This document shows positions 3,325 through 26,899 of a stretch of 26,899 nt of DNA, piece after piece (within the stretch, counting starts at the first letter, position 1; every line of letters begins with the position of its first letter). Both the position numbers and the translations under genes were made by a program. Source of the DNA: a virus. The DNA lies in IMG/VR virus record IMGVR_UViG_3300045988_046997, positions 1 through 26,899 of that record. One strand, given 5' to 3'. The notes below the pieces were generated by a model. It ran no database searches, had not been told where the DNA came from, and saw only the letters and a program-made list of their open reading frames with translations.

Positions 3325-3630
3325 GTGGACGACATCGAAGAGCGCGTTTGCAAGCTTGAAGCCGAAAACCAGCAGGTAATCGCCGACGTTAGGACGCTCG
3401 GGGAGCGAGTCGGCAGGCACGGATCAGAGCTTGACGAGCTGAAGATCAAGAGCGCGACGATGAACACGGTTTTAACTAGGATCGACGCGACCGTGGCGAA
3501 GATCGACGGTCGGTTGGACGCTCAGCAGATGAAGCCTGCGCAGCGATGGGACGACATCGTGAAGCAGGTTATTACTCTGGTCATAGCAGCCGCCTTCGGC
3601 GCTGTGATGGTTAATCTCGGTTTTCAGTAA
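3325..3630 (+). CDS. XhlA-like protein (N-terminal coiled coil, C-terminal transmembrane helix); lysis-associated
   Basis: ORF 3310-3630 with a TTG at 3310. GTG at 3325 has a GGAGA RBS 4 nt upstream. The coiled coil IEERVCKLEAENQQV... is followed by the hydrophobic C-terminus VITLVIAAAFGAVMVNLGF. It sits directly before the holin, as xhlA does in PBSX. Confidence 0.55.
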   Translation: MDDIEERVCKLEAENQQVIADVRTLGERVGRHGSELDELKIKSATMNTVLTRIDATVAKIDGRLDAQQMKPAQRWDDIVKQVITLVIAAAFGAVMVNLGFQ

Positions 3631-3640
3631 AGGGGGACTT

Positions 3641-3850
3641 ATGGAAAAGAGTTACATGCTGCCTGACAAGGCTTACGACGTTATGAAGTGGGCGGGTCTG
3701 ATCGCCTGCCCCGCGCTTGCGGCGTTCTACGGCGCGACGGCTCCGCTGTGGGGATGGCCTGCACCTGAAGCAGTGGTAACCACGATCAACTCGGTTGGCG
3801 TTCTGATCGGCGCTTTGATCGGCGCAAGCCACATGAAAGCGAGGTCTTAA
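3641..3850 (+). CDS. Holin (class II-like, two transmembrane segments)
   Basis: 69 aa with an AAAGGGGGA RBS. Two hydrophobic helices (WAGLIACPALAAFYGATAPLW and VTTINSVGVLIGALIGA) precede a basic C-terminus HMKARS. It is immediately upstream of the endolysin, whose ATG overlaps the holin stop. Confidence 0.7.
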   Translation: MEKSYMLPDKAYDVMKWAGLIACPALAAFYGATAPLWGWPAPEAVVTTINSVGVLIGALIGASHMKARS

Positions 3851-4853: not shown

Positions 4854-4894
4854 GTTCTAGCTAGGTCGCAGTATGTTCTAGCAGAACAGATCGA

Positions 4895-4923
4895 GACCCC
4901 TCATCGCGAGGGGTCTTTTATTG
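4895..4923 (+). terminator. Rho-independent terminator T1 after the endolysin
   Basis: GACCCCTC-atcgc-GAGGGGTC: 8-bp GC-rich stem followed by TTTTATTG. Confidence 0.75.
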
Positions 4924-4933
4924 TCAAAAGTGT

Positions 4934-4962
4934 TTGCAATTGAAAACGTAATATGCTAAGAT
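4934..4962 (+). promoter_or_regulatory. Early promoter P1: -35 TTGCAA (4934-4939), 17-bp spacer, extended -10 TGcTAAGAT (4954-4962)
   Basis: Sigma70-like hexamers with exact 17-bp spacing. A GTTTGC half-site overlaps the -35 box. The same architecture recurs at P2 and P3. Confidence 0.7.
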
Positions 4963-4971
4963 TTTATTAAC

Positions 4972-4990
4972 GCAAACGGAAAGGGTTTGC
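4972..4990. promoter_or_regulatory. Inverted repeat GCAAAC-N7-GTTTGC just downstream of the P1 start site: putative operator or leader hairpin
   Basis: Perfect 6-bp arms. The same arrangement, GCAAAC-N6-GTTTGC, occurs downstream of P2. Confidence 0.5.
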
Positions 4991-5025
4991 GAAGAGCGCC
5001 CGTCATGGGCGGAAAGGCAGGGGAA

Positions 5026-5703
5026 ATGGAACCAACGAAGGAGGCTGAGCCCAGAAGCGTTTACGCGGTTCTCGCTGAGGTTCAGCATCGCGTGACGTGC
5101 AAGAAGGGTCGCGTGAACAAGTTCGGCGGCTACTCGTACCGATCGCTGGAGGACATCAACGCGGCGTTGAAGCCGCTGTGCCAAGAGCTGAGGTGCGGGT
5201 ACTTCTTCACCGACGAGATCGTGCCTATGAGCGTGGAGGGCGAGAGCAGATGGTACTTGAAAGCCACCGCGACGTTCTGGGCGGAAGACGCTTCCCAGAC
5301 CGTGAGCACGTCTGCGTTCGCGCGAGAGCAGGACTCGAAGAAGGGCATGGACGACGCTCAGGTGACCGGTCTTGCGTCGAGCTACGCGCGGAAGTACGCC
5401 TCTTGCGCCCTGTTCGCGATCGACTCAGGCGAAGAGGTGGACGCGATGGACAACGGGCAGAAACAGCGCGCTCGCAAGCAGGTAACGGCTGAGGCAAAGC
5501 AGGATCAGTCGGAAGAGCTTCTTACTCTGGTCGGTCAGTTCGCCGACATGAAAGGCAAGACTGCTGACGAGGTCATGCGAGCGTTGAACAAGAGCAACAC
5601 CATGAAGGGTCTGGGAGTTGCGGCCGATGCCGTCGAGTACGACGTGGAGCAGACTGCTGCTGCGATCGAACTGCTTAAATCATGGATCGCTAAATCGAAA
5701 TAA
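5026..5703 (+). CDS. erf: ERF-family single-strand annealing protein (recombinase)
   Basis: The ORF begins at 4987 with TTG. ATG 5026 is preferred because the conserved GAAAGGCAGG leader/RBS precedes it; ATG 5005 is an alternative. Motifs: VLAEVQ...KKG..N.FGGYSYRSLEDINAALKPL and ...GLASSYARKYASCALFAID. Confidence 0.8.
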   Translation: MEPTKEAEPRSVYAVLAEVQHRVTCKKGRVNKFGGYSYRSLEDINAALKPLCQELRCGYFFTDEIVPMSVEGESRWYLKATATFWAEDASQTVSTSAFAREQDSKKGMDDAQVTGLASSYARKYASCALFAIDSGEEVDAMDNGQKQRARKQVTAEAKQDQSEELLTLVGQFADMKGKTADEVMRALNKSNTMKGLGVAADAVEYDVEQTAAAIELLKSWIAKSK

Positions 5704-5714
5704 GGAGATAGAAC

Positions 5715-6107
5715 ATGCAAGGATTGAACACGGTGACTTTGGGCGGCAACCTGTGCAGGGACGCGGAACTCAGGATGGCGGCGAGCGGAACAGCCGTACT
5801 GTCGTTCAGCGTTGCGGTGAACGAGAGCGTGAAGGATCGTAACGGAGAGTGGAGCGATTACCCGAACTACATCGACTGCACGATGTTCGGTCGCCGCGCG
5901 GAGAGCGTCGCTCCGTACCTGACTAAGGGAGCGTACGTCGCGGTGGTCGGACGCTTGCATCAGAACCGCTGGAAGGCGCAGGACGGGCAGAACCGCTCGA
6001 AGGTCGAGGTATTAGTTGACAACGTGCACTTCGAGAGCAGGGCTGATCGCGCAGAGGCGGCGCATCAGCAGGGCGGCGCTCTGTACGACGAGGACATCCC
6101 GTTTTAA
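5715..6107 (+). CDS. ssb: Single-stranded DNA-binding protein
   Basis: 130 aa with an AAGGAGA RBS. OB-fold-like N-terminus followed by a Gln/Gly-rich linker and an acidic C-terminal tail YDEDIPF. Confidence 0.85.
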   Translation: MQGLNTVTLGGNLCRDAELRMAASGTAVLSFSVAVNESVKDRNGEWSDYPNYIDCTMFGRRAESVAPYLTKGAYVAVVGRLHQNRWKAQDGQNRSKVEVLVDNVHFESRADRAEAAHQQGGALYDEDIPF

Positions 6108-6114
6108 CGAAACT

Positions 6115-6144
6115 ATCCCCTGAGCGATCAGGGGATTTTCTTTC
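6115..6144 (+). terminator. Rho-independent terminator T2 after ssb
   Basis: ATCCCCTGA-gcga-TCAGGGGAT: 9-bp stem followed by TTTTCTTT. Confidence 0.8.
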
Positions 6145-6154
6145 GAAAAACTGT

Positions 6155-6183
6155 TTGCAATCAAAAACGTAACGTATTAAGAT
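6155..6183 (+). promoter_or_regulatory. Early promoter P2: -35 TTGCAA (6155-6160), 17-bp spacer, -10 TAAGAT (6178-6183)
   Basis: A paralogue of P1. A GTTTGC half-site overlaps the -35 box, and the spacer contains the shared AAAACGTAA. Confidence 0.7.
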
Positions 6184-6193
6184 GTTTACAGAG

Positions 6194-6211
6194 GCAAACG
6201 AAATGGTTTGC
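6194..6211. promoter_or_regulatory. Inverted repeat GCAAAC-N6-GTTTGC downstream of P2: putative operator or leader hairpin
   Basis: Perfect 6-bp arms at 6194-6199 and 6206-6211. Confidence 0.5.
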
Positions 6212-6234
6212 AAGGACAATGAAAGGCAGGAAAC

Positions 6235-6669
6235 ATGAACTTCACGAGCAAGTACGATGTAATCGAGTCTCTGCTGAAGACGTACGACGAGCTGGATCGT
6301 CTCAGGGCTGAGAACGAGCGCCTGAAGCGCGTCAACGCCGACATGAAGAGCATCGACAGCGTGGATGACGAGGAAGACCCGCGAGCGTACCAGAAGGCTC
6401 GGATCATGGAGTACGGGCGCAAGGAGATCATGAAGAACTCTACGAGCTACTGGGACAGCGTCATGGTGAAGCGTGGAGACGAAGGCCAGCTCATCGTTCA
6501 GGAGTTCGCGGACTGGCGCAAGGGAGTAATCAACAGAACCCCCGAGTTCATGAGCTGCGAGGACTTCTACGTACTGATGGACGCGGAGCTTCGAGAGACT
6601 TACGAGCTGCGCAAACTCGAGGCGATCGACAAGCTGGTCGAGTCGGAGCGCGAGTCCGATGGCGAGTAG
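6235..6669 (+). CDS. Hypothetical acidic coiled-coil protein, first gene of the P2 operon
   Basis: 144 aa. It is preceded by the conserved GAAAGGCAGGA RBS region. No family was recognised. Confidence 0.5.
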   Translation: MNFTSKYDVIESLLKTYDELDRLRAENERLKRVNADMKSIDSVDDEEDPRAYQKARIMEYGRKEIMKNSTSYWDSVMVKRGDEGQLIVQEFADWRKGVINRTPEFMSCEDFYVLMDAELRETYELRKLEAIDKLVESERESDGE

Positions 6670-7117
6670 CGCGTTCCGAGTGGCAGGTCAGGTCGTGGGG
6701 AAGCCACGACCACGCTTCAACAGAATGGGAACGAAGGTCAGGACTTACACGCCGAAGAACGGCGAGATGTTCGAGGAGCTGGTCAGGAATTCTTACATGG
6801 CTCAGTGCGGGGAGATGCACAATGGAGCCGTGAAAGTCGAGATCGCGTACCGACGAGTGCTGCCGAAGAGCCGACCGAAGAAGGTCGAGAGCGAGATTGA
6901 TCTGTTCAAGCCGGACGTGGACAACGTGGCGAAGGCGGTTCTGGACGCTCTGAACGGGGTAGCTTTCGAGGATGATAAGGACGTTGTGAGCTTGAAGGTC
7001 GAGAAGCTCCCGAGGGTCAGGATCGAGCAAGACGAGCTGTGCGTGATCGTCAGCGACGCAGACGACGAGGAGATGGAGGAACAGTGGCTACGCTTTACGA
7101 ACTCGACAAGGCTATAG
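6659..7117 (+). CDS. rusA: RusA-family Holliday-junction resolvase
   Basis: Motifs: ...VGKPRPRF... then ...LFKPDVDNVAKAVLDALNGVAFEDDKDV..., a typical RusA signature. Confidence 0.8.
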   Translation: MASSAFRVAGQVVGKPRPRFNRMGTKVRTYTPKNGEMFEELVRNSYMAQCGEMHNGAVKVEIAYRRVLPKSRPKKVESEIDLFKPDVDNVAKAVLDALNGVAFEDDKDVVSLKVEKLPRVRIEQDELCVIVSDADDEEMEEQWLRFTNSTRL

Positions 7118-7581
7118 AGCAGGTGATCGAGCACGGATTCTCATGGGACGAGGAGACGGGCGAGGTTCTGTTCGAGGAGTCTGATCTGGAGAGCCTTCAA
7201 GTGGCGCTCAGCGACAAGCTGGAGGCATGTGGCATCTGGATCAAGAACCAGAAGGCGCTGGCGGACGCTATCAAGGCGGAGGAGAAGGCTCTGAGCGACC
7301 GCAGGAAGTCGATCGAGAAGAGGCTGGAGAGGATGGACGGGTACGTGCTCCGATGCTTGATGAAAACGCCGAAGCAGAGCGTGGAAACGCCGATGGTCTC
7401 GCTGAAGACGAGGAAGTCGACGCGAACGATCATCGACGACGAGTCGGAGGTGCCCGAGGAGTTCACCGAGCATGTCGTCACCGTGAAAGTGAACAAGGCG
7501 GAGATCGGCAAGGCGCTCAAGGCGGGCCGAGAAGTGTCTGGCGCCCATCTGGAGACGAGCCAGAACTTGCAAGTGAAATGA
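7084..7581 (+). CDS. Siphovirus Gp157-like protein
   Basis: The ORF extends from 7039. The start is placed at GTG 7084, which has a GGAGGA RBS. The N-terminus (M)ATLYELDKAIEQ... and the ...EEKALSDRRKSIEKR... coiled coil resemble Gp157-family proteins. Confidence 0.6.
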   Translation: MATLYELDKAIEQVIEHGFSWDEETGEVLFEESDLESLQVALSDKLEACGIWIKNQKALADAIKAEEKALSDRRKSIEKRLERMDGYVLRCLMKTPKQSVETPMVSLKTRKSTRTIIDDESEVPEEFTEHVVTVKVNKAEIGKALKAGREVSGAHLETSQNLQVK

Positions 7582-7597: not shown

Positions 7598-8287
7598 TTG
7601 GCGGGAAAGCGGATGTTCTCGCGGGACGTCGTCGGCTCCGACGGCTTCGCGGATATGGGCTTCGAGGCTCAGGCGCTATACGTCCACCTGTCGATGGACG
7701 CTGACGACTGGGGTTTCGTAGGAGCTCCGAAGAGGGTTCAGCGCTCCATTGGATCTCGACAAGAGGCTCTGAGAGAGCTTGAGAAGTCGGGTTTCGTTCA
7801 TGTGTTCGAGAGCGGCGTTCTGGCTATCATGGACTGGTGGCAGAACAACACGATCACGGAGAGCAGGCGGAAGGCGACGCAATACGAGGCGGAGCTGGCG
7901 CAGCTGACGGTCACGGATTGCGGTTCCTACCAGCTCGTTTGCGAACCGCAAGCAAACTGCATGCAAAGTGCATGCGAAACGCCTGCTAGTTTAGATGAGG
8001 TTAGTTCAGTTAAATCTAGTTCAGATAAGAAGAAGCCCGCGCGTCATGCCTACGGCACGTACAAGAACGTCCTGTTATCCGATGAAGAGCTGGAGAAGCT
8101 GAAGACGGAGTTTCCGAGCGATTGGCAGGAGCGCATAGAGTCGATATCCACTTATTGCGCATCGAAGGGCAAGGCTTACCGAAACTATCTGGCGACGATC
8201 CGTGCATGGGCGAAACGCGACGGCAAGAAGGGAGGATCGAGAGATGCGGCTGTCTTCGATGCAATCGGCTTTTCAAACGGTGCTTGA
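7598..8287 (+). CDS. Replisome organiser / replication initiator with a DnaD-like C-terminal domain
   Basis: TTG start with a GGAAGGAGG RBS. The C-terminal ...AYRNYLATIRAWAKRDG... is DnaD/DnaB_2-like. An internal iteron + AT-rich element at 7935-8035 encodes the inter-domain linker. Confidence 0.6.
   Translation: MAGKRMFSRDVVGSDGFADMGFEAQALYVHLSMDADDWGFVGAPKRVQRSIGSRQEALRELEKSGFVHVFESGVLAIMDWWQNNTITESRRKATQYEAELAQLTVTDCGSYQLVCEPQANCMQSACETPASLDEVSSVKSSSDKKKPARHAYGTYKNVLLSDEELEKLKTEFPSDWQERIESISTYCASKGKAYRNYLATIRAWAKRDGKKGGSRDAAVFDAIGFSNGA
7935..8035. repeat. Putative origin element oriA inside the replisome-organiser gene
   Basis: Five 11-bp-spaced iterons (GTTTGCgaac, gCAAGCAAA, CTGCATGCAAA, GTGCATGCGAAA, GCCTGCtag) are followed by the AT-rich tagtttagatgaggttagttcagttaaatctagttcagataag. 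About 85 bp of this aligns with 21410-21492. Confidence 0.6.
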
Positions 8288-9077
8288 CGCGCACGAGTCT
8301 GATCCAGTCGGCGACGGGGTCTTCATCGCCGAGGACGGTCTCGCTCATTGCGAGAAGTGCGGCACTCCGATGCAGGTCATCATAACCGACCCGATGGGGA
8401 GGAAACGCACGATGCCGTGCGCCTGCAAATGCATGATCGAGGCTGAGGAACAGCGGAAGCTGGAGGATCAGCGCAGGCGATCCGAGGCGGCTAAGAGGTC
8501 GCGGGTCAGGGCGGCGTTCCCGTTCGAGTCGATGCGCGGGAAGACCTTCTCAGCCGATGACGGGAAGTTCGGCGCAGACCAGATGCGGAAGGCGAGGGCT
8601 TACGCCAAGCGGTTCGTGGAGACTGACGGGAAGATCGACTACGGTTTGCTTTTCTTCGGGAAGCCGGACAGCGGGAAGACGTTCTTGAGCTGCTGCATCG
8701 CAAACGAGGCTCTGGACGCTGGGAAGTCCGTCATCATGCGATCGATGCCGCAGTTGCTCGTCCAGCGCGACGACTCGATGCTCGGCAGGCTGCTCAGGTG
8801 CGACCTGCTCGTCATAGACGATCTGGGAGCCGAGCGCAGCACGTCGTACGGTCAAGAGTACGTCTACGCGGTCGTTGACGGAAGGTACAGCGCGAAGAAG
8901 CCGATGATCGTGTCAACGAACCTGACGCGCGAGGAGCTGGCGGCTCCAGCTGACATCATGTCGGCGAGGATCTACGGGAGAGTGCTGGAGGCTTGCCTGC
9001 CGATCGAGGTGGAGACGGGAAGGCGCAGGGCTACCCGAGACCGATACCGCGAAATAATGGACGACATGGGCGTGTAA
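8244..9077 (+). CDS. DnaC/IstB-like AAA+ helicase loader
   Basis: The ORF extends from 8202. The start is at ATG 8244, which has a GGGAGGA RBS. Walker A FFGKPDSGKTFL; Walker B LLVIDDLGAE. Confidence 0.8.
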   Translation: MRLSSMQSAFQTVLDAHESDPVGDGVFIAEDGLAHCEKCGTPMQVIITDPMGRKRTMPCACKCMIEAEEQRKLEDQRRRSEAAKRSRVRAAFPFESMRGKTFSADDGKFGADQMRKARAYAKRFVETDGKIDYGLLFFGKPDSGKTFLSCCIANEALDAGKSVIMRSMPQLLVQRDDSMLGRLLRCDLLVIDDLGAERSTSYGQEYVYAVVDGRYSAKKPMIVSTNLTREELAAPADIMSARIYGRVLEACLPIEVETGRRRATRDRYREIMDDMGV

Positions 9078-10316: not shown

Positions 10317-10334
10317 GGAAAACCTTGAATATTT

Positions 10335-10365
10335 GTTTGCAAACGTGAATGAATCATGCTAAGAT
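10335..10365 (+). promoter_or_regulatory. Middle promoter P3: -35 TTGCAA (10337-10342) inside the perfect palindrome GTTTGCAAAC (10335-10344), 17-bp spacer, extended -10 TGcTAAGAT (10357-10365)
   Basis: Hexamers and 17-bp spacing read directly. The operator-like palindrome overlaps the -35 box. Confidence 0.7.
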
Positions 10366-10366
10366 T

Positions 10367-10405
10367 AGGTCACACCGAAAGGGAAACACCGAACGAAAGG
10401 CAGGA
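10367..10405 (+). promoter_or_regulatory. Conserved 39-nt leader AGGTCACACCGAAAGGGAAACACCGAACGAAAGGCAGGA, identical to 17212-17250
   Basis: Exact identity between the two copies. Contains the tandem ACACCGAA and an AGGA Shine-Dalgarno 4 nt before the ATG. Confidence 0.7.
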
Positions 10406-10409
10406 CACA

Positions 10410-10640
10410 ATGGCAAGCAGGAAACAGACCACCGCAGAGCGTTTCGGCATCGAGAAGCGCGTCTTCGCCGCGAAGATCTGCTACTGCGACATCGAGGACA
10501 ACGGCAAGCAGGCAGGCGCGACGGTCGATTACAAGTCCCTTGCAGCCGCGTACAAGCGTTGCAGCAAGGACATCGCGAACGGCTTGGCGCTGTCTCTTCA
10601 CGCGCTCACAGCCGACGGCTGGGTCGAATGCGGAGCTTGA
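10410..10640 (+). CDS. Hypothetical protein (76 aa)
   Basis: ATG directly after the conserved leader. The ORF-track start at 10356 lies inside the promoter. Confidence 0.45.
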   Translation: MASRKQTTAERFGIEKRVFAAKICYCDIEDNGKQAGATVDYKSLAAAYKRCSKDIANGLALSLHALTADGWVECGA

Positions 10641-11572: not shown

Positions 11573-12009
11573 TGAGGAACCCGAGCGTTTACGAGCTGGT
11601 GGAATGGGACACGGGGAGGGTATTGATCCACGGAACGAAAAGCTACATTGCTGATCAGCTCGGGTTGTCGCTTTACTCAGTGGACACGATCATCAGCCAC
11701 GCGAGGAAGGGCATCGGGGCGACGAGGGTCGCGTTCTTCGATCCAGCGATCCACTACCGCGCGTCAAACGGCGATCAGGTCATCGAGGGCACGTGCGACG
11801 AGATAAGCAAGGCGATCGATAGAACACGGTTCTCGGTCATGACGGCGGCGCAGAAAGGGTACGTGACCACGAACGGGTGGAGGATCGAAGAGGTTGAGCC
11901 AGAGTGCTGGTGTGCGTTCGGTGTTCGCAAACGATACAACGACGCTGTGTCGAGGCTGAAAAGCGCGACGCGCCGTGGCAAGGTAAAACGATCTAAGGAG
12001 AGCAGATGA
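11572..12009 (+). CDS. Hypothetical protein, possibly a DNA-binding regulator
   Basis: ATG overlaps the dut TGA. ...SYIADQLGLSLYSVDTIISHARKG... is HTH-like. The C-terminus is basic. Confidence 0.45.
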   Translation: MRNPSVYELVEWDTGRVLIHGTKSYIADQLGLSLYSVDTIISHARKGIGATRVAFFDPAIHYRASNGDQVIEGTCDEISKAIDRTRFSVMTAAQKGYVTTNGWRIEEVEPECWCAFGVRKRYNDAVSRLKSATRRGKVKRSKESR

Positions 12010-12707
12010 AGGTTCGCGTGATTAGAGCAACGACGAGCCCGATGCACGCAATCAGCGAAGAGGCTGGGATATGTTACGGCAAAACTGACTACAACCCGAA
12101 GCGAGTGGAGCGTTGTCTGAGGAACGGTCACACGAGCGTCGCCGAGCACGTTTCCGCGTCGTTCCGCATCGAGGGAATCAGCCGATCCTGTTTGGCGCAG
12201 CGTATGCGGAATGAAATCCACTTCATGCGCCTCAACCGAGAGTGGTATGAATCCGAGGACAGTACGGTCGAGTGTGGCAACCGTGCGTTCAGGGACATAG
12301 CGAACGCCGTAATCCCCTATAGCCATTTTGGCAATAATTACATCGAAATCGTTGAACGCATTGCAGACCTCATCGAGCCGCAATTGATCGACGGCGAGAC
12401 ATCGGACGGCTACCACACGTTTAACGAGCTCTACCATCATCGAGCCGTGCTGTTCTCGGTGATCGTGTCGAGCTTCAGCGATCGAGCTTGGAAGTCTAAG
12501 CTGCACGCTGATGGCACCATGTACGACGGAATGTTCATCGTCGGCATCGAGACTCCAGACGGGCAAGCGACGTACCATTACGACGTAGAGCCTTACTGGG
12601 ATCTGTTCCGATGCAAGGAGGTTGACCGTGCGCCGGAGTGGGACGGGCACACACCCGGCCAAGCCATTGAGCGAATCGGCAAGCTTGCTGAGAATGCAGT
12701 AAAATAA
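12006..12707 (+). CDS. Divergent ThyX-like (flavin-dependent thymidylate synthase fold) protein with an altered signature motif
   Basis: AGGAGAG RBS. The N-terminus ...CLRNGHTSVAEHVSASFRIEGISRSCLAQRMRNEIHFMRLNREWY aligns with the ThyX segment ...[40 protein letters not shown]. The RHR-X7-S motif is replaced by RMR..H.... Confidence 0.45.
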   Translation: MKVRVIRATTSPMHAISEEAGICYGKTDYNPKRVERCLRNGHTSVAEHVSASFRIEGISRSCLAQRMRNEIHFMRLNREWYESEDSTVECGNRAFRDIANAVIPYSHFGNNYIEIVERIADLIEPQLIDGETSDGYHTFNELYHHRAVLFSVIVSSFSDRAWKSKLHADGTMYDGMFIVGIETPDGQATYHYDVEPYWDLFRCKEVDRAPEWDGHTPGQAIERIGKLAENAVK

Positions 12708-12844: not shown

Positions 12845-13318
12845 TTGGAGAAGGACAAGGAGAAACACGCAGGGGGACAGCCGACGAAGTACGTTGAGAG
12901 CGTCCACGTGCCGTGGGGCGTGTCCCTTGCGCGTCGAGGATGCACTGACGAGGAGATAGCGGAGGCGTTCGGGGTCAGCACCAGAACCGTTTACCGCTGG
13001 AAGAACGCGCATCCCGAGTTCTGTCACGCCATAAGCGAGACGAAGAGCCAAGCCGATGAGAGAGTCGTCGAGGGTCTTTACAAGCGCGCGTGCGGCATGA
13101 TCGTCGTGAACAAGACGGAGAGCGTAACGGAGCGCGACGGCGTGAAGACGAAGAAGACCGAGAAGGTAACGAAGGAGCTTCCGCCAGACTCCGTGGCGGC
13201 TATGTTCTGGCTGAAGAACAGGCAGCCGACGCTTTGGAGCGACAACCCTGCGGAGCAGACGCGAACCGCGTCAGACGAGGCTATCAAGGACGCGATCAGG
13301 AATGCGGGTCTGAGCTGA
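12845..13318 (+). CDS. terS: Terminase small subunit
   Basis: TTG start. HTH ...CTDEEIAEAFGVSTRTVYRWKNAHPEF... and ...AAMFWLKNRQPTLWSDN..., typical of TerS. Located directly upstream of TerL. Confidence 0.7.
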   Translation: MEKDKEKHAGGQPTKYVESVHVPWGVSLARRGCTDEEIAEAFGVSTRTVYRWKNAHPEFCHAISETKSQADERVVEGLYKRACGMIVVNKTESVTERDGVKTKKTEKVTKELPPDSVAAMFWLKNRQPTLWSDNPAEQTRTASDEAIKDAIRNAGLS

Positions 13319-14538
13319 TGCTGAGCGAGAAGCAGCGCCTTCTCGCGACGTGGTGGAGCGAAGGCGGGGAGTTTGCAGACAAAGACGGGGTCATAGCAGA
13401 TGGAGCAGTGCGCAGCGGCAAGACGTACGCGCTGGTCATTGGGTTCCTGCTTTGGTCGCAGCTCAGGTTTTCTGGTGAGTCGTTCATAATCGCAGGCCGC
13501 ACGATGGGAGCGTTGAAGCGAAACGTGGTGGCTCCGATGCTACAGGTCATACGCGATTTCGGTTGGCCTTGCCACTACAACCGCAACGAGGGCGTTATAA
13601 CGATCGCGAGCAACATGTACCACCTGTTCGGCGCAAACAACGAACAGAGTCAGGACAAGATCCAAGGCATGACGGCGGCGGGTTGCCTTCTAAACGAGGT
13701 GGCGCTCATGCCGCGCTCGTTCGTGGATCAGGCACTCGCCCGCTGCTCCGTGTCCGGTGCGAAGTTCTGGTGGGACTGCAACCCGAGTTACCCAGCGCAC
13801 TTCGTTAAAGCTGACTTCATCGACAAGGCTCAGGAACGCAACCTGTTCAGATTGAAGTTCACGATGGACGACAACCCGACTTTGGCTCCCGATGCTCGGG
13901 CAAGGTACGAGCGGCTTTACTCCGGCGTGTTCTACGACCGTTACGTTAGAGGCTTGTGGGTAGTCGCGGAGGGTCTGGTCTATCAGGACTTCAAGGAGTC
14001 GGAGATGTGTGCGGAGCTGTCGGATGAAGACATCAAGAAGGCGGCGCACGTGGTGTCCATCGACTACGGCATCACGAACCCGTTCGCGGCTATAGATTGG
14101 GTCGTCAAAGACGGCGTGGCGTACGCGGTGGACGAGTATTACTTCGATTCTAAAGACGAAGAGTTCCGCCGAACCGACGAGGAGCATTACGAGGCGCTGA
14201 AGAAGTGGATCGGCAAGAGATACGTCGAGCTGGTGGTCATCGACCCGTCCGCCTCTTCGTTCATCGAGTGCATGGCGCGCCACGGCGAGTGGGAGTTCAG
14301 AGGCGCGGACAACTCGGTCATAGACGGCATCAGCAACACCATGACGGCCATGAAGCAGCAAGGTCTTCTCATAGGAAAGAAGTGCAAGCACCTGCTTCAA
14401 GAACTCGGTCTGTATAGATGGGACGAGAAGAAGAAGCACGAGGCCGTGGTAAAGGAGAACGACCACGCTTGCGACGCCATGAGGTACTTCGTTCAAACGG
14501 TCGGCGTGAACGAGCTTTCATGTTTTGACTGGGAGTGA
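13318..14538 (+). CDS. terL: Terminase large subunit
   Basis: The ORF track extends to 13090. The start is at ATG 13318 overlapping the terS TGA. Walker A DGAVRSGKTYAL; the nuclease-half acidic motifs follow. Confidence 0.85.
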   Translation: MLSEKQRLLATWWSEGGEFADKDGVIADGAVRSGKTYALVIGFLLWSQLRFSGESFIIAGRTMGALKRNVVAPMLQVIRDFGWPCHYNRNEGVITIASNMYHLFGANNEQSQDKIQGMTAAGCLLNEVALMPRSFVDQALARCSVSGAKFWWDCNPSYPAHFVKADFIDKAQERNLFRLKFTMDDNPTLAPDARARYERLYSGVFYDRYVRGLWVVAEGLVYQDFKESEMCAELSDEDIKKAAHVVSIDYGITNPFAAIDWVVKDGVAYAVDEYYFDSKDEEFRRTDEEHYEALKKWIGKRYVELVVIDPSASSFIECMARHGEWEFRGADNSVIDGISNTMTAMKQQGLLIGKKCKHLLQELGLYRWDEKKKHEAVVKENDHACDAMRYFVQTVGVNELSCFDWE

Positions 14539-17149: not shown

Positions 17150-17181
17150 ATTCATGTATGAAATAATATAAGCATTACCGT

Positions 17182-17210
17182 TTACAAACAGAAACAAGCA
17201 ATACTATAAT
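17182..17210 (+). promoter_or_regulatory. Promoter P4: -35 TTACAA (17182-17187), 17-bp spacer, -10 TATAAT (17205-17210)
   Basis: Consensus-like hexamers. The upstream GTTTACAAAC is a near-palindrome related to the P3 operator. The 39-nt leader at 17212-17250, identical to the P3 leader, follows. Confidence 0.7.
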
Positions 17211-17211
17211 G

Positions 17212-17250
17212 AGGTCACACCGAAAGGGAAACACCGAACGAAAGGCAGGA
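17212..17250 (+). promoter_or_regulatory. Second copy of the conserved 39-nt leader, identical to 10367-10405
   Basis: Exact sequence identity. Confidence 0.7.
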
Positions 17251-17254
17251 TGAA

Positions 17255-17440
17255 ATGAACGAGAAGAAGCAGGAACTCTTCAACGAGATGATCGAAGCAG
17301 CCACAGCCTACATGAACACCAACACGTTCGAGAACGCAAAATACTGCTCAGTCCGCAAGGCGACCGAGGCTTACGCGGAGTTCAGCGGCATCAGCTACGA
17401 GCAAGCCGCGAATATCGCGCTCGAGACGATCAAGCGCTAG
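17255..17440 (+). CDS. Hypothetical small helical protein (61 aa), moron gene 1
   Basis: ATG 4 nt after the AGGA of the conserved leader. Confidence 0.45.
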   Translation: MNEKKQELFNEMIEAATAYMNTNTFENAKYCSVRKATEAYAEFSGISYEQAANIALETIKR

Positions 17441-20345: not shown

Positions 20346-20753
20346 ATGCCGTACGTAACCTATGAGGAGTACCAGCAGGCAGGCGGGAAGCTGACGGAAG
20401 CCGAGTTCGACGTTCAGGAGCCTAGGGCTGAGGTCATGCTCGATGGATGGACGATGAACCGACTGAAGGAGCAGAGCGTCGTTGACGACCTGAAGGCGAT
20501 GGGCGATTGGCGCAGCGTCGTGATCGCCGTGTGCTGGCTCACCGACCAGATGCAGGGCATCGAGAAGGCGCGCAAAGCGAAGGCCGACGGCGCGGAGGTA
20601 ACGAGCTTCAACAACGGCGTGAACTCGTTCTCGTTCGGCGGCGGCTCGTCGAGCGACGCGACCGCTGCGGAGTCGTCCGCGTACCACGAGGTGGTCAGGA
20701 TCCTTCCAGTGGAGCTCGTGAGCGCCTGCGTGTCGTACAACAACGCGCGTTAG
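20346..20753 (+). CDS. Putative head-tail connector / adaptor (gp6/gp15-like)
   Basis: Size, N-terminus MPYVTYEEYQQ... and position after the capsid gene. Weak. Confidence 0.4.
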   Translation: MPYVTYEEYQQAGGKLTEAEFDVQEPRAEVMLDGWTMNRLKEQSVVDDLKAMGDWRSVVIAVCWLTDQMQGIEKARKAKADGAEVTSFNNGVNSFSFGGGSSSDATAAESSAYHEVVRILPVELVSACVSYNNAR

Positions 20754-20763
20754 GGGGGTTGAC

Positions 20764-21240
20764 GTGAACATCGACGTTGACGGCCTGTTGGATCGGACGG
20801 TGACGGTCATCAACCGCATCGGCGCGAAGGAGTCGGGGGAGGAGTCGGACATTTACCGACCGATCGTCCTGCGACCCGCCCAGTGGGCTGAGACCATGAC
20901 CAGAACCACGGACGCTGACGGGACTGTCCACCTGAAGAGATCGGTCAGGGTTCAGGTTCCGAGCGGCACGGCGACGTTCAAGCCCTACCGCGAATGGGTC
21001 TCAGAAGCTGTGAGAGGCTCCACAGATGGCGTTTACACGTTCTCGCTGCACGACTACGTGGTCGAGGGTGATTTGGGCGTTGCAGGCGATCTGACGCGCC
21101 AAGAGGCGTTGCAGGCGATCGAGGGAAAGCCTCACTGCGAGGTGTCCGCCTTCCGAGACTTGAGGAACGGCGGCGCGGTCGAGGCTCCGGAGGTCGGCTG
21201 CCTGAAGTACGCTTCGGTGATCTACGCGGAGGGGGTTTAG
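20764..21240 (+). CDS. Putative head closure / head-tail joining protein
   Basis: GTG start with a GGGGGG RBS. Position only. Confidence 0.35.
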   Translation: MNIDVDGLLDRTVTVINRIGAKESGEESDIYRPIVLRPAQWAETMTRTTDADGTVHLKRSVRVQVPSGTATFKPYREWVSEAVRGSTDGVYTFSLHDYVVEGDLGVAGDLTRQEALQAIEGKPHCEVSAFRDLRNGGAVEAPEVGCLKYASVIYAEGV

Positions 21241-21258
21241 ATGCGCGGTTTCGGTAGG

Positions 21259-21495
21259 AGCTTGCATGCGTTCTGCATGCAAACTGCATGCATTGTGCGT
21301 GCAACTGCAAGCGTTCTGCATGCGGTCTGCGAAGTTAGCGGTTCCCTCGTCAAAATGCGATGGGAAAACCGAAAAAACCGCGTTTGACCTGCTTGTTTGC
21401 AAACTGCAAGCAAACTGCATGCAAACTGCATGCAAAATGCTTGCTAGTATAGGTTAGTTTAGGTTAGTTTAGGTTAGTTTAGATAAGTATAGAGA
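21259..21495. repeat. Putative origin element oriB: two clusters of 11-bp-spaced iterons separated by an A-tract, followed by an AT-rich tandem repeat tract
   Basis: Cluster I has about 7 units at 21262, 21273, 21284, 21295, 21305, 21316 and 21327. Cluster II has 5 units at 21394, 21404, 21415, 21426 and 21437 and includes GTTTGCAAAC. The A-tract GGGAAAACCGAAAAAACCG lies at 21362-21380. The AT-rich tract is 21445-21495. It is non-coding, and 21410-21492 aligns with 7952-8035. Confidence 0.6.
21451..21480. repeat. Perfect tandem repeat (AGGTTAGTTT) x3 flanked by related TAGTAT / AGATAAGTAT units
   Basis: Read directly. This is the most AT-rich stretch of the genome, a candidate DNA-unwinding element. 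Confidence 0.8.
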
Positions 21496-21505
21496 GGATG
21501 CGCGC

Positions 21506-21838
21506 ATGGCTACCGTGACGCTCGACCTCGACGGAGTGGACGCTAAGGCAAGCAGGATTAAGAACAACGAGACCTTCGGTCTGTTCATCGCCACCGAGGC
21601 GATGCGCGGCATGTCGCCATACGTCCCGTTCAGGAACGGCTACCTCGACGCTTCGGCGAAAGCGGAGCCGTTCGCCGTGACGTACCAGACCTCGTACGTC
21701 TCGAAGGTGTACCACGGGACTCACATGCGTTTCTCGAAGGAGCGGCACGCTCTGGCCACCGCCGAGTGGGACAAGGCTTACGCTGCGGCTCACGGGCAGG
21801 AGCTGGCGCAGGCTTGCACGGCGTATCTGAAGAGGTGA
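21506..21838 (+). CDS. Putative HK97 gp10-like / tail-completion protein
   Basis: 110 aa with an AGAGAGGA RBS. Size and position only. Confidence 0.35.
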   Translation: MATVTLDLDGVDAKASRIKNNETFGLFIATEAMRGMSPYVPFRNGYLDASAKAEPFAVTYQTSYVSKVYHGTHMRFSKERHALATAEWDKAYAAAHGQELAQACTAYLKR

Positions 21839-21842
21839 TCTG

Positions 21843-22280
21843 ATGGGATCCAACGGTAAGACCGCAGCCGTCGTCGAATGGCTGAAGACGTACCCGGAGC
21901 TTGACGGGTACCTGAAGCTGAACGCGACGGAGCTGGAGGCTGGCGAGCGCACGGTTGACACCGTGTACAACGACGCGAAGGTTCGCGAGTTCATAGACGG
22001 GACAGTGGAGAGGCAGTACACGTTCGCCGTCGTGATGGTGTGCGACTGGTCGTCTGGCTTCGACGCGGTCAACGCTGAGGCGGAGAGCTGGGGCGAGCGG
22101 TGGCTCGACTGGTGCGACGCTCAGTTCAAGGCAGGGAACGTGCCAGGATTCGGCGGAAAGTGTACAATACGGGCGATAGAATCGCTCCAGAACATCCCTT
22201 CGTTGGCTGCGACCTATCAGGAAGAGCAACTGGCTCGGTACATGTTCCAAGCGCGCATCACGTATTGGGAGAAGGAGTAA
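21843..22280 (+). CDS. Putative tail terminator / tail component
   Basis: 145 aa. Located immediately upstream of the major tail protein. Confidence 0.35.
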   Translation: MGSNGKTAAVVEWLKTYPELDGYLKLNATELEAGERTVDTVYNDAKVREFIDGTVERQYTFAVVMVCDWSSGFDAVNAEAESWGERWLDWCDAQFKAGNVPGFGGKCTIRAIESLQNIPSLAATYQEEQLARYMFQARITYWEKE

Positions 22281-25875: not shown

Positions 25876-26760
25876 GTGGAACAGGTTCTGCTGCGCATCG
25901 TCAGGGACGACGGCTTGGTGTTCGACATAGACAACTTGGTCTGGATGATCCCGAGCGACGGCTTGGAGAACTGGGCGAACCTGCCGCACTCGGTGTCGGT
26001 GCAGGAGAACGCCAGCTACGACGGCGGAGTTGTGACGAACAAGAGGATCGAGACGGTGGACAGGTCGGTTCACGCAGAGCTGGCGAACCCGGCGGACAAC
26101 GCCGAGAAGCGTCTGGAAGCGATCCGCTTCTTCAGCCCGAAGCACACGTACGACGCTCACCTGACGTATCAGGGTCGGACGCGTTGGTGCCACGGCGAGC
26201 AGTACGCCTTCAAGTGCGACGCGGGGAACATATACGCCCCAGTGTCGTTCGATTGGACGATCTTGTGTCCCATGCCGTACCTGCTGAGCGAGGACGACTT
26301 CGGAAAAGACGTCGCGTTCGTCACCGGCAAGTTCGGCTTCCCATACCATTCCGTCGTTCAGAGCACGCCGAGCGGGGTCTACAAGCGCGGCTTCGTCATG
26401 GGCGTTTACGACTTCAATAAAACTGTTGACATCGCCAACGACGGCGACGTGACGACATTCCCGAGGGTCGTCGTCAAGGCTGACGGAGTTGTGGAGAACC
26501 CGAAGATCAGCATCGGCGACAAGTTCGTCCGCTTCGTCGGCACGTTGCAGCAGGGTGACGAGCTGGTGATCGACTTCGATAAGAGGCCGCCGAGAGTGGA
26601 GCTGAACGGGAAGAACGCGATGAACAAGGTGGATCGCTCCAGCTCGTTCACGTCTTTCCAGATCGAGCCCGGCGACACTACATTCACGTACGACGCTGAT
26701 TCCGGCGAAAACGTCATGTCGGTCTCGCTGTTCTACCGCAAACGCTACCTCGGGATCTAG
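25876..26760 (+). CDS. Distal tail protein (Dit, Sipho_tail-like)
   Basis: GTG start with an AGGAGG RBS. 294 aa. Located directly after the tape measure gene. Confidence 0.55.
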   Translation: MEQVLLRIVRDDGLVFDIDNLVWMIPSDGLENWANLPHSVSVQENASYDGGVVTNKRIETVDRSVHAELANPADNAEKRLEAIRFFSPKHTYDAHLTYQGRTRWCHGEQYAFKCDAGNIYAPVSFDWTILCPMPYLLSEDDFGKDVAFVTGKFGFPYHSVVQSTPSGVYKRGFVMGVYDFNKTVDIANDGDVTTFPRVVVKADGVVENPKISIGDKFVRFVGTLQQGDELVIDFDKRPPRVELNGKNAMNKVDRSSSFTSFQIEPGDTTFTYDADSGENVMSVSLFYRKRYLGI

Positions 26761-26769
26761 GAGGATCGC

Positions 26770-26899
26770 ATGGAGTTATACGGGCTTGACAAGGGGTTCG
26801 GCTTGGTGACGGCGGCGATCCCGTACTTCAACCTGCAATGGAACAGGAAGTATTACGAGTCGGGCACGTTCAGCTTGCAGATAACGGCTGACGTGTACG
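26770..26899 (+). CDS. Truncated second copy of the CDS at 12-1046, produced by the terminal redundancy of the contig
   Basis: Identical to 12-141 and runs off the window end. Confidence 0.8.
   Translation, partial: MELYGLDKGFGLVTAAIPYFNLQWNRKYYESGTFSLQITADVY

Follow-up and report, generated by a model that had tools for sequence, protein, structure and literature searches.

An origin-like element carried twice by a small human-gut phage, inside the initiator gene and between head-tail genes

Why would a phage hold, among its head-tail genes, a second copy of the very stretch of its initiator gene that codes for a linker between two protein domains? The question is raised by a small human-gut phage (IMG/VR record IMGVR_UViG_3300045988_046997), whose 26,899 nucleotides, hereafter the window, correspond to a circle of 26758 bp. 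It belongs to a group that is very abundant in the human gut, with genomes of 26-33 kb and more than 400 portal variants at E <= 1e-50. A database of 50,697 phage records contained no megablast match to 25 kb of the window, and the tract junction, searched as an exact pattern in 185,579 species genomes, occurred in none of them; a profile scan for the initiator returned only matches of 33-47% identity, mostly in Bacillota prophages and metagenome-assembled genomes (MAGs). The initiator gene, its neighbours and the in-gene copy, together with the small terminase gene discussed further below, are located as follows.

4987 to 7581, plus strand: recombination genes beside the initiator, Erf (4987-5703), SSB (5715-6107), RusA (6659-7117) and Gp157/Gam-like (7039-7581), from Pfam and PHROGs matches
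7598 to 8287, plus strand: replisome-organizer (initiator) gene, 229 aa, TTG start, GGAGG 7 nt upstream
7929 to 8029, plus strand: putative in-gene origin element, full extent of the paralogy, coding for linker residues 111-144
7937 to 7986, plus strand: in-gene iteron array, GTTTGC at 7937, GCAAGC at 7948, GCATGC at 7959, GCATGC at 7970 and GCCTGC at 7981, with an exact 11-bp period (TRF period 11)
7987 to 8029, plus strand: in-gene AT-rich tract, (TAGNT)n with GAG, AAA or AAG in place of TAG in one pentamer out of three, that in which it would be read as a codon; 30% G+C
8244 to 9077, plus strand: DnaC/IstB-like helicase loader gene overlapping the end of the initiator gene (PF01695, 2e-11; phrog_50, 2e-46; NF005992, 3e-56)
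12845 to 13318: small terminase gene

The resemblance between the two copies had originally been predicted to span about 85 bp, 7952-8035 against 21410-21492. It is real and slightly longer than that: positions 7929-8029 and 21387-21487 align without gaps at an offset of 13458, or 0.50 of the circle, with 82 of 101 positions identical (81%; blastn E 6e-23 within the window), and the 11-bp phase of the iterons is held in both. Each half of the match was compared with 5000 composition-matched shuffles. The iteron half (58 nt, 45-55% G+C) has 50 of 58 positions identical, the best shuffle reaching 30, and the AT half has 32 of 43, the best shuffle reaching 26. Low-complexity AT matching is thereby ruled out as the source of the similarity, and the paralogy of the two stretches is real and far beyond chance. 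They share one design, in which five GCWWGC cores at exact 11-bp spacing are followed by a tract of TAGNT pentamers.

The gene that contains the first copy encodes a replisome organizer, as had been proposed: its product matches phrog_8489, 'DnaD-like helicase loader' (4e-48), and phrog_5708 (4e-40), and its close homologues carry the NCBI name 'replisome organizer'. A tblastn search with the protein found matches in 136 phage records, mostly annotated as replisome organizer or replication initiation protein, and residues 1-127 are 44% identical to Rep of Tuc2009 (BLASTP E 3e-33). NCBIfam and Pfam hold no model that matches it. The protein consists of a winged-helix-like N-terminal domain, a disordered linker and a C-terminal domain; in the AlphaFold model, pLDDT is 85-95 for residues 11-110, ~30 for residues 117-145 and 75-85 for residues 150-210. 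When the model of the N-terminal domain was submitted to Foldseek, the top matches were RepA_N plasmid initiator-DNA complexes (5kbj, 4pt7 and 4pql; probability 0.95-0.97); together with 4pta, these are its best structural matches, and we take them to be pSK41/pTZ2162-type RepA proteins of staphylococcal plasmids. In RepA proteins of this type the winged-helix N-terminal domain binds iterons, and in RepA_N replicons the origin lies inside the central part of the rep gene. The structural match is, however, a weak one (E 0.01-0.05, TM ~0.4 on the target) to plasmid rather than phage initiators, with no sequence-level relationship, and a PDB sequence search with the initiator family profile gave no meaningful match; we do not claim membership of that family. 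No helicase was detected in the scanned window proteins, from which several small window ORFs were left out, or in the precomputed Pfam lists of relatives, and the sole helicase-loading function in these sets is the DnaC-like loader.

The in-gene element lies in frame within the inter-domain linker, again as predicted, and encodes the peptide ...YQLVCEPQANCMQSACETPASLDEVSSVKSSSDKKKP... at residues 111-144, which coincide with the low-confidence segment between the two confidently folded domains. The five iterons beginning with GTTTGC were confirmed at 11-bp steps (cores 7937-7981), and the degenerate sequence that follows them is a tract of TAGNT type. Three perfect TAGNT units in succession would give a stop codon in every frame, and the in-gene tract departs from (TAGNT)n at the in-frame TAG only. 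Among relatives, amino-acid identity is lower in the linker (0.55-0.67) than in the domains (0.70-0.90), and at third codon positions the linker is at least as conserved (0.68-0.78 vs 0.52-0.72); identical residues more often share the same codon there (0.77-0.87 vs 0.56-0.77). The linker thus keeps its synonymous sites better than the flanking domains do, and the comparison points to selection on the linker at the level of DNA, in the window clade as well as in its sister clade. The in-gene tract is also the third least stable 45-bp duplex in the genome and, of the eight least stable, the only one that is coding.

The second copy lies in a gap within the head-tail connector block, which is found at the same position in the 11 relatives whose gap was read.

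21241 to 21505, plus strand: non-coding gap of 265 bp, flanked by a phrog_3366 gene (20764-21240) and a Minor_capsid_2 gene (21506-21838)
21264 to 21334, plus strand: array A, 6-7 GCATGC/GCAAGC cores, the first six at 21264-21318, with 11-bp spacing and one 10-bp step; no in-gene counterpart
21336 to 21386, plus strand: spacer between the arrays, poorly conserved (41-49% identity to the other clade)
21387 to 21487, plus strand: intergenic paralogue, with the cores of array B at 21395, 21406, 21417, 21428 and 21439 and a perfect (TAGNT)8 from 21445

The intergenic copy holds three exact AAACTGCATGC units, and its tract is the genome's least stable stretch of duplex at both 45 bp and 60 bp (z 5.2). 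An expansion of iteron number in this copy, as suggested in the original prediction, is not seen in the paralogous array, which has five cores like its in-gene counterpart; extra iterons do exist, in the separate upstream array A, which has no adjoining AT tract. The number of units in array A differs among relatives by 11-bp steps: L007 (IMGVR_UViG_3300045988_025172) has 4 units more than L004, L044 has 3 more, and L060 more still. A 63-codon ORF at 21266-21457 was rejected as a gene, both on account of these 11-bp shifts in array length and because its ATG sits in GCATGC cores that read GCAAGC elsewhere. A promoter and terminator scan of 20700-21900 found neither a sigma-70-like promoter nor a plus-strand terminator in the gap, and Rfam at gathering thresholds gave zero matches within the window. 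GC skew is positive along the whole genome because all genes are on one strand, and it carries no origin signal.

Comparison of clades separates the element from its surroundings. Identity between clades is 80-86% in array B and 76-88% in the tract, compared with 41-49% in the adjoining spacer, and in genomes with the cognate initiator the pentamer repeat stays perfect even though its unit number changes. Each of the four class-1 genome types in which both sites were read has both copies. Imperfect tract units number 10 of 36 in relatives whose initiator has been swapped, vs about 1 in 75 in genomes with the cognate initiator or its gene layout. Since array B and the tract outconserve the spacer, both copies occur in the four class-1 types, and the tract decays without the cognate initiator, the second copy appears to be kept by selection and not to be a chance relic. 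On these patterns, both copies look functional. The iteron cores barely vary among genomes with this initiator, too little for co-variation of initiator and iterons to be assessed.

Not every relative retains the arrangement. In some, the replication module has been swapped for one located elsewhere in the genome, with another initiator and other in-gene iterons, and the intergenic copy is retained largely intact. L061, with an initiator 58% identical, has lost the in-gene tract and carries the same iteron and TAGNT cassette between the lysis genes and the early promoter, next to its cognate replication module. P0033, P0034 and P0035 have no in-gene tract. In L051 the initiator is intact (86% identity in the N-terminal domain), and the in-gene element has been turned G+C-rich by T>C and A>G changes and has no AT tract. 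L051 is known from the in-gene side, its locus ending short of the connector gap; the genome's own portal and capsid protein were not among the proteins returned, the best capsid match being 94% identical. As L061 illustrates, the cassette tracks the initiator family rather than one locus.

That an origin may lie inside the initiator gene, which the original prediction offered as a known arrangement, holds for this very protein family. In lambda O, the initiator gene contains four iterons and an AT-rich region, placed between the parts coding for its two domains, although that protein is of an unrelated family and the origin is single. The Rep gene of Tuc2009 is annotated 'contains origin of replication', and Rep2009 has been reported to bind direct repeats inside its own gene (PMC8965321). 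With this P335 group (Tuc2009 ori2009/Rep2009, TP901-1 ORF13 and r1t ORF11), the phage shares a homologous N-terminal domain, as given above for Tuc2009 Rep, and an origin-like element in the central, linker-coding part of the gene. In Tuc2009 the linker DNA is likewise in two parts, 11-bp CAACCAAATG-type repeats and then a AGGTTAGG/ATAGG tract, and the TTAGG/TAGNT-type tracts are read as ...RLGKDS... or ...EVSLG... peptides. Both in initiator homology and in having repeats and an AT tract in the linker, the in-gene copy therefore conforms to the Tuc2009/P335 type of in-gene origin. Binding of the in-gene repeats by the initiator, with a PER phenotype in which the fragment would support replication or interfere with it, is predicted on that pattern, and the DNA-level constraint on the linker lends it indirect support. 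The differences are that the iterons are of CAACCAAATG type there and of AAACTGCATGC type here, that the C-terminal domains are not alignable by BLASTP, and that no second copy exists in the genomes of Tuc2009, ul36 and five further complete phages of the family.

For the pair of elements the closest parallel is SPP1. There oriL is embedded in gene 38 where the linker is encoded, its paralogue oriR is found in non-coding DNA among the late genes, and gp38 (G38P) binds both (PMC6316719). The original prediction had cited SPP1 for oriL only and called a distant intergenic duplicate unusual. In kind it is not, given SPP1, in which we re-found the oriL/oriR pair by blastn; within this initiator family, however, a second copy is rare, being absent in 7 of 7 complete phage genomes and not found within 10 kb in any of 80 prophage loci. 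The likenesses are several. SPP1 oriL (nt 373-441 of gene 38, coding for ...KRHEKDTKKTQKRINNNDNNENNDNK...) occupies the linker-coding middle of the initiator gene, as does the in-gene copy here; the paralogous copy is in non-coding DNA of the late or structural block in both phages; each copy combines direct repeats with an AT-rich unwinding element; the two copies match each other to a similar degree (81% over 101 nt here and 83% over 71 nt in SPP1); and annealase, SSB and Holliday-junction resolvase functions are encoded beside the initiator in both. The Erf, SSB, RusA and Gp157 set is the kind of toolkit invoked for the switch from theta to sigma replication in SPP1, for which a recombination model has been put forward (PMC3485210).

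There are also clear differences from SPP1. Its oriR follows the minor head protein gene, in the interval separating genes 7 and 8, rather than lying between connector genes; its copies are separated by 0.29 of the circle rather than 0.50; it has its own DnaB-type helicase (gene 40), whereas only a DnaC-like loader was found in the proteins scanned here; and the intergenic site of the present phage has an additional iteron array. The phage thus has two marks of an SPP1-type dual origin, paralogous elements and a second copy apparently maintained by selection; two others, orthology of the initiator to G38P and a phage DnaB-type helicase, were not detected. BLASTP finds no likeness between the initiator and G38P, and the scanned proteins yielded no helicase. 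What the two phages share is therefore architecture and probable mechanism, not descent. The dual-origin layout is already known from SPP1, and what is new here is another example of it, with a dissimilar initiator.

These observations suggest the following model. We consider it likely that both stretches are copies of a cognate origin cassette, the in-gene copy being the counterpart of oriL and ori2009 and the intergenic copy that of oriR, with initiator binding predicted and firing putative at both. The cassette would consist of 11-bp iterons (core GCWWGC) and the easily melted (TAGNT)n tract that follows them, and the iterons would be bound by the replisome organizer that the phage itself encodes, with its winged-helix N-terminal domain as the candidate binder. 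The initiator would thus bind the DNA that codes for its own linker and melt the adjoining tract, and together with the neighbouring DnaC-like loader it would load a helicase, presumably that of the host. From the shared iterons we infer that the same initiator binds both sites with high affinity. The intergenic copy and array A would then give the initiator a second site of high affinity, located in the late block on the opposite side of the genome and equipped with an unwinding element of its own. This site might either fire as a second origin or retain the initiator firmly enough to stall forks arriving from the first; stalled forks could in turn trigger recombination-dependent (sigma) replication through Erf, SSB, RusA and Gp157. 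A two-origin strategy or a titration site, the pair of readings originally offered, was accordingly a reasonable one. Several observations count against the model. The orphan intergenic element is largely intact in phages without the cognate initiator, so its persistence does not strictly need that initiator, and the seven complete phages of the same family live on a single in-gene origin. The uninformative GC skew, the weak structural match to RepA_N and the near-invariance of the iterons also count on that side. The orphan-carrying genomes are close relatives of a class-1 genome, which makes them a weak test in both directions.

Several other explanations bear on the intergenic copy. It is possible, though we lean against it, that this copy does not fire at all and serves as an initiator sink, as a handcuffing partner or as a replication fork barrier. 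Auxiliary iterons of plasmids have a sink or handcuffing role, and extra iterons outside the origin there lower the frequency of initiation; array A, with iterons and no adjoining AT tract, fits that anatomy. In SPP1, gp38 at oriR is, by the accepted proposal, a roadblock that sets off the theta-to-sigma switch (PMC6316719, PMC3485210), a matching recombination set is encoded here, and at 13458/26758 of the circle the site is where bidirectional forks would meet. A sink or barrier would not, however, need a conserved and perfect unwinding tract, and the tract is as well conserved as the iterons and is the weakest duplex in the genome; the roadblock is, moreover, a proposal even in SPP1. We think it rather unlikely that the roles are reversed, so that the intergenic cassette would be the main or a sufficient origin, and the in-gene copy, of secondary importance or not needed at all, would persist through descent and occasional gene conversion. 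Such a reversal would agree with the unconstrained consensus of the intergenic copy (three exact iteron units, perfect (TAGNT)8, extra array, least stable duplex), with the intact initiator of L051 beside a G+C-rich element, with the missing in-gene tracts of P0033, P0034 and P0035 and with the external cassette of L061, and the greater likeness of the two copies within the window clade (0.82) than across clades (0.73) suggests exchange between them. Yet in the window clade and its sister clade the conservation of synonymous sites indicates continuing selection on the DNA of the in-gene copy, and Tuc2009, ul36 and other family members use an in-gene origin alone.

The remaining alternatives deny the intergenic copy a part in replication, and both appear improbable. 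A job in the structural module, as a pac site or as a regulatory array for the downstream tail genes, with the likeness to an origin merely historical, would explain why the element moves together with the structural module and persists where the replication module differs and sits elsewhere; the element also lies directly upstream of the ribosome-binding site of the gene at 21506-21838, and in its first unit, GTTTGCAAAC, there is a likeness to the -35 region of the promoter-like repeats of this phage. We nevertheless regard such a job as very unlikely, given the empty promoter, terminator and Rfam results for the gap, the quite different context of the L061 cassette beside its cognate replication module, and the decay of the tract in genomes without the cognate initiator. 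Pac sites normally lie in or beside the small-terminase gene, here at 12845-13318, and the pac-site idea found no support. Slimmer still is the chance that the copy was left behind by an earlier duplication or illegitimate recombination and has no function: it does survive as an orphan alongside another initiator, and seven related complete phages lack a second copy, but array B and the tract have kept 76-88% identity from clade to clade, which the spacer has not, and with a cognate initiator the tract remains a perfect pentamer repeat through changes in unit number.

Within the preferred reading, that of two copies of one cognate origin cassette, we tentatively raise a further idea that we hold to be somewhat doubtful: the cassette may be a portable origin module, able to reside in the initiator gene, in the late block or upstream of the early operon, and the copy opposite the in-gene origin (0.47-0.50 of the genome) may be a programmed point at which forks meet or stall, leading from theta replication to recombination-dependent synthesis of concatemers. 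To our knowledge, studies of what a duplicate origin in the late region does are essentially confined to SPP1, and the present phage places the same architecture, with an initiator that BLASTP does not relate to G38P, in a very abundant group of gut phages. Natural variants in which a copy is orphaned, erased or relocated provide a comparative handle on whether such a copy acts by firing, by fork stalling or by initiator titration, and they show how origins and initiators stay linked or separate during modular exchange; the orphan, T>C/A>G-erased and externalised variants also open the disputed role of oriR-type sites to direct testing. For annotation, the ...EVSLGEVS... and ...RLGKDS... linkers of 'DnaD-like' phage proteins may be read as coding-compatible (TAGNT)n origin tracts, so that matching intergenic tracts could be used to find extra origins.

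The stretch inside the initiator gene and a second one in a non-coding gap of the connector block are paralogous, as originally predicted: 82 of 101 positions are identical without gaps (blastn E 6e-23). The possibility, raised with that prediction, that the similarity is only low complexity of AT-rich DNA is ruled out, since the iteron part (45-55% G+C), with 50 of 58 positions identical, and the AT-rich part, with 32 of 43, each scored above every one of 5000 composition-matched shuffles. Both copies carry five hexamer cores of the GCWWGC type, the first being GTTTGC (start 7937 in the initiator gene, 21395 in the connector gap), with the iteron phase kept at a spacing of exactly 11 bp, and a pentamer-repeat tract follows each five-core array. 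The expanded iteron number that had been proposed for the gap does not concern its paralogous array, array B: the extra iterons belong to another array further upstream, array A, with 6-7 cores (starts of the first six at 21264-21318), from which a 51-bp spacer leads to array B.

Features around the two copies in the window
7598-8287, + strand, initiator ORF (TTG start, GGAGG upstream)
7929-8029, in-gene copy
8244-9077, + strand, DnaC/IstB-like loader, the next gene after the initiator
upstream of the initiator, + strand, Erf, SSB, RusA and a Gp157/Gam-like gene (Pfam/PHROGs)
21241-21505, 265-bp non-coding gap between the phrog_3366 gene and the Minor_capsid_2 gene, inside the connector block
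21387-21487, gap copy

The initiator matches PHROG families annotated as DnaD-like helicase loader or replisome organizer (4e-48), and 45%-identical homologues in Enterococcus prophages carry the NCBI name 'replisome organizer'. Its residues 1-127 are 44% identical (E 3e-33) to Rep of the lactococcal phage Tuc2009, whose gene is annotated 'contains origin of replication' and whose product is reported to bind direct repeats within its own gene that act as origin (PMC8965321). In an AlphaFold model built with 14 homologues, a confident N-terminal domain (pLDDT 85-95) is followed by a disordered segment at 117-145 (pLDDT ~30) and a helical C-terminal domain. The best structural matches, the Rep-DNA/initiator entries 5kbj, 4pt7 and 4pql, which we take to be RepA_N-type plasmid initiators, are weak (prob 0.95-0.97, E 0.01-0.05), and we use them solely as support for a predicted DNA-binding winged-helix domain. 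The in-gene copy lies in frame and codes residues 111-144, which places it in the linker as had been proposed. Placement of the origin within linker-coding DNA of the initiator gene is standard for this initiator's family, as it is for lambda O and for RepA_N plasmids.

Three lines of evidence indicate that the in-gene copy is a DNA element, more than linker code. When codons were compared among three initiator clades, amino-acid identity was 0.55-0.67 in the linker vs 0.70-0.90 in the domains, whereas third-position identity was equal or higher in the linker (0.68-0.78 vs 0.52-0.72), and identical residues more often shared the same codon there (0.77-0.87 vs 0.56-0.77); the pairs are non-independent and the comparison hence descriptive, with the same direction in 3/3 comparisons. 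The codon phase of the tract is the second line. The gap tract is a perfect (TAGNT)8, and three successive perfect units put TAG in all three frames, so that such a tract is untranslatable. In the in-gene tract, GAG, AAA or AAG stands in the pentamers that fall in codon phase, precisely one in every three, and the rest keep TAG or CAG; L001, a relative, shows this without irregularity as (TAGTT TAGNA GAGGT)x3, read as EVSLG repeats. Since replacement is confined to the codon-phase pentamers, the in-gene tract, described at first as degenerate, is the closest coding-compatible form of the gap consensus. The third line is family-wide: the Tuc2009 linker DNA has the same two-part design, with 11-bp CAACCAAATG-type repeats and then a AGGTTAGG/ATAGG tract, and by analogy the linker peptides that recur across the family (VRLGKDRLGKDS, SIDKNSIDK, RLEENRLEE) are taken to be encoded by the same kind of tract. 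One relative, L051 (10320-10450; ENA ERZ27279820 k141_357039; protein P0023), has an intact initiator and ordinary flanks around an in-gene cassette that a cluster of T>C and A>G transitions has made G+C-rich (TAGTTTAG to CAGTCCAG; EVSLG repeats to EASPG); selection to silence the origin in the gene, or mutation acting locally, could be the cause. P0012 resembles an intermediate.

Nucleotides 1-141 of the window are identical to 26759-26899, which we read as the overlap left when an assembler closes a circular contig (the largest default k-mer of MEGAHIT is 141); if so, the true genome is 26,758 bp, circular or circularly permuted. On this circle the two copies lie 13,458 bp apart, nearly antipodal at a fraction of 0.503, and the separation is ~0.49 in the 29.2-kb L044-type relatives and ~0.47 in the 32.8-kb IMGVR_UViG_3300014963_000062, although this placement may merely reflect gene order. 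In duplex stability, the gap tract comes out weakest of all stretches of the genome at both 45 bp and 60 bp (z 5.2). The in-gene tract takes third place; of the eight weakest stretches it alone is coding, and the rest are promoter-like regions.

The order array A, spacer, array B, tract occupies the same place in 11/11 relatives whose region was read. Between the window and the other clade, identity is 80-86% in array B, 76-88% in the TAGNT tract and 66-68% in array A, vs 41-49% in the spacer. Close relatives differ in the number of 11-bp units of array A and of tract pentamers, the units themselves remaining perfect.

Both copies are present in 4/4 genome types in which a window-type initiator occurs and both sites are readable (the window; IMGVR_UViG_3300014963_000062; the abundant 29.2-kb L044/L045/L052; and the pair L035 + L037). 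A second group (contigs 047184, 094940, 025554, 129657 and L054) shares the window's structural module at 75-88% identity but has a different replication module, sited between the minor-head and scaffold genes. Phages with the moved module include L015 (3061-3927; IMGVR_UViG_3300045988_047184), L012, L021, L036, L042 and L054, and its slot is where SPP1 has oriR and morons. In the second-group initiator the N-terminal domain is unrelated, and the linker carries iterons of its own, GGTGATAAAACATCAC x4 (L015 3337-3415), plus an AT tract, in a single copy per genome. These phages retain the window-type TGCAAACTGCA gap element as an orphan within ~10% of a relative that has the window-type initiator; as the likeness extends even to the spacer, retention says little for or against a function. 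The orphan tracts contain 1-4 imperfect units of 9 (10/36 in four sequences), vs ~1/75 in tracts with the cognate initiator or its layout, and these phylogenetically non-independent counts agree with a relaxation of constraint where the cognate protein is missing. In L061, where the initiator is 58% identical and the in-gene tract is lost, the same cassette (GTTTGC/GCAAGC cores, then TAGTATAGATTAGATTAGTTTAG...) lies at 6488-6585 in non-coding DNA, 3.5 kb upstream of the initiator gene, with lysis genes on one side and a terminator and early promoter on the other; judged by this layout, it is a putative externalised origin. Taken with the in-gene and gap positions, the cassette thus follows this initiator family through three positions.

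SPP1 has oriL inside gene 38 and oriR among its late genes, in a segment that is non-coding; gp38 binds both, and at oriR it is proposed to form a roadblock that triggers the theta-to-sigma switch, which involves a Holliday-junction resolvase, exonuclease, annealase and SSB (PMC6316719, PMC3485210). The same blastn procedure recovered the SPP1 pair (gene 38 nt 373-441 vs 4878-4948, 83% over 71 nt). The duplication, regarded in the original prediction as unusual, is real and was largely correctly interpreted, but its architecture was already known from SPP1, with which the window shares a duplicate origin-type element in the late region. The initiators, however, have no BLASTP similarity; the second copy lies between connector genes rather than after the minor-head gene; array A is an addition; the copies are separated by 0.50 of the circle (13458/26758) vs 0.29 in SPP1; and, in a further difference, no phage helicase gene was found among the scanned proteins of the window or in the relatives' precomputed annotation. 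Within the initiator's own family, duplication is uncommon: a second copy is absent in 7/7 complete phages (Tuc2009, ul36, NF5, phiRgIBDN1, Javan18, Enterococcus 4995_1 and MT835524), and among 80 prophage loci, searched over 10 kb each side, five gave nothing beyond short 27-38 nt matches, and a single locus, L100, has a 290-nt duplicate (100% identical). The window, L044 and SPP1 pairs were all recovered by this method.

The window (G+C 59%) carries all plausible genes on the + strand, in the order tail and baseplate, lysis, replication/recombination block, small early genes with dUTPase and a ThyX-like gene, terminase, portal, minor head protein, scaffold, capsid, connectors and tail. Its relatives come from human-gut metagenomes, with 435 distinct portal variants at E <= 1e-50, most on 26-30 kb contigs; megablast of 25 kb of the window against 50,697 deposited phage records gave no match. 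The product of 12006-12707, not a full thymidylate synthase, joins the initial ~85 residues of a ThyX (Thy1) domain to a WDGH domain (1e-40). The large terminase of abundant 29-kb relatives (L044 8289-9965; also L045, L046, L052 and L053) is a 558-aa protein with an intein-splicing domain (PF14890), the window ORF has 482 aa and Terminase_6N as its sole Pfam match, and a split TerL match in contig 047184 suggests another insertion. Four promoter-like repeats (4931-4963, 6152-6184, 10334-10366 and 17180-17212; TGTTTGCAA-N17-(C/A)TAAGAT, the copy at 17180 being GTTTACAAAC...TATAAT) sit where gene blocks begin. GTTTGCAAAC, the -35 part of these repeats, is palindromic over 10 bp and equal to the first unit of both iteron arrays, and so the initiator could, on sequence grounds, touch these promoters too. 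Two 78-nt repeats (10335-10412 and 17180-17257; 79% identical) each consist of a promoter-like site and a common 40-nt leader, GGTCACACCGAAAGGGAAACACCGAACGAAAGGCAGGA, up to the start codon; L061 has a related ACGAAAGGCAGGAG leader ahead of its first early gene, and the shared leader may represent a 5' UTR that is conserved, or a signal for translation. In an unrelated 39.6-kb viral contig (L013, IMGVR_UViG_3300045988_063464; ~3629-3680, reverse strand), four 11-bp repeats GCAAACTGCCC adjoin a strong divergent promoter region, a similar iteron-like word in a different context.

On the reading that the evidence favours most, each of the two stretches is a copy of the cognate origin cassette; the in-gene copy would be an origin of the oriL/ori2009 type, and the gap copy a second site of the oriR type that has an unwinding element of its own. 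We infer binding, firing and fork stalling at the copies. The gap copy could instead be the main origin, or it could act as a barrier or sink only. A non-replicative role, or persistence as a functionless relic, is unlikely given the pattern of conservation across the gap, the relocated cassette of L061 and the decay of the orphan tracts. The main value of the origin-cassette finding lies in the set of natural variants that it provides, which could settle the role of a second origin copy.
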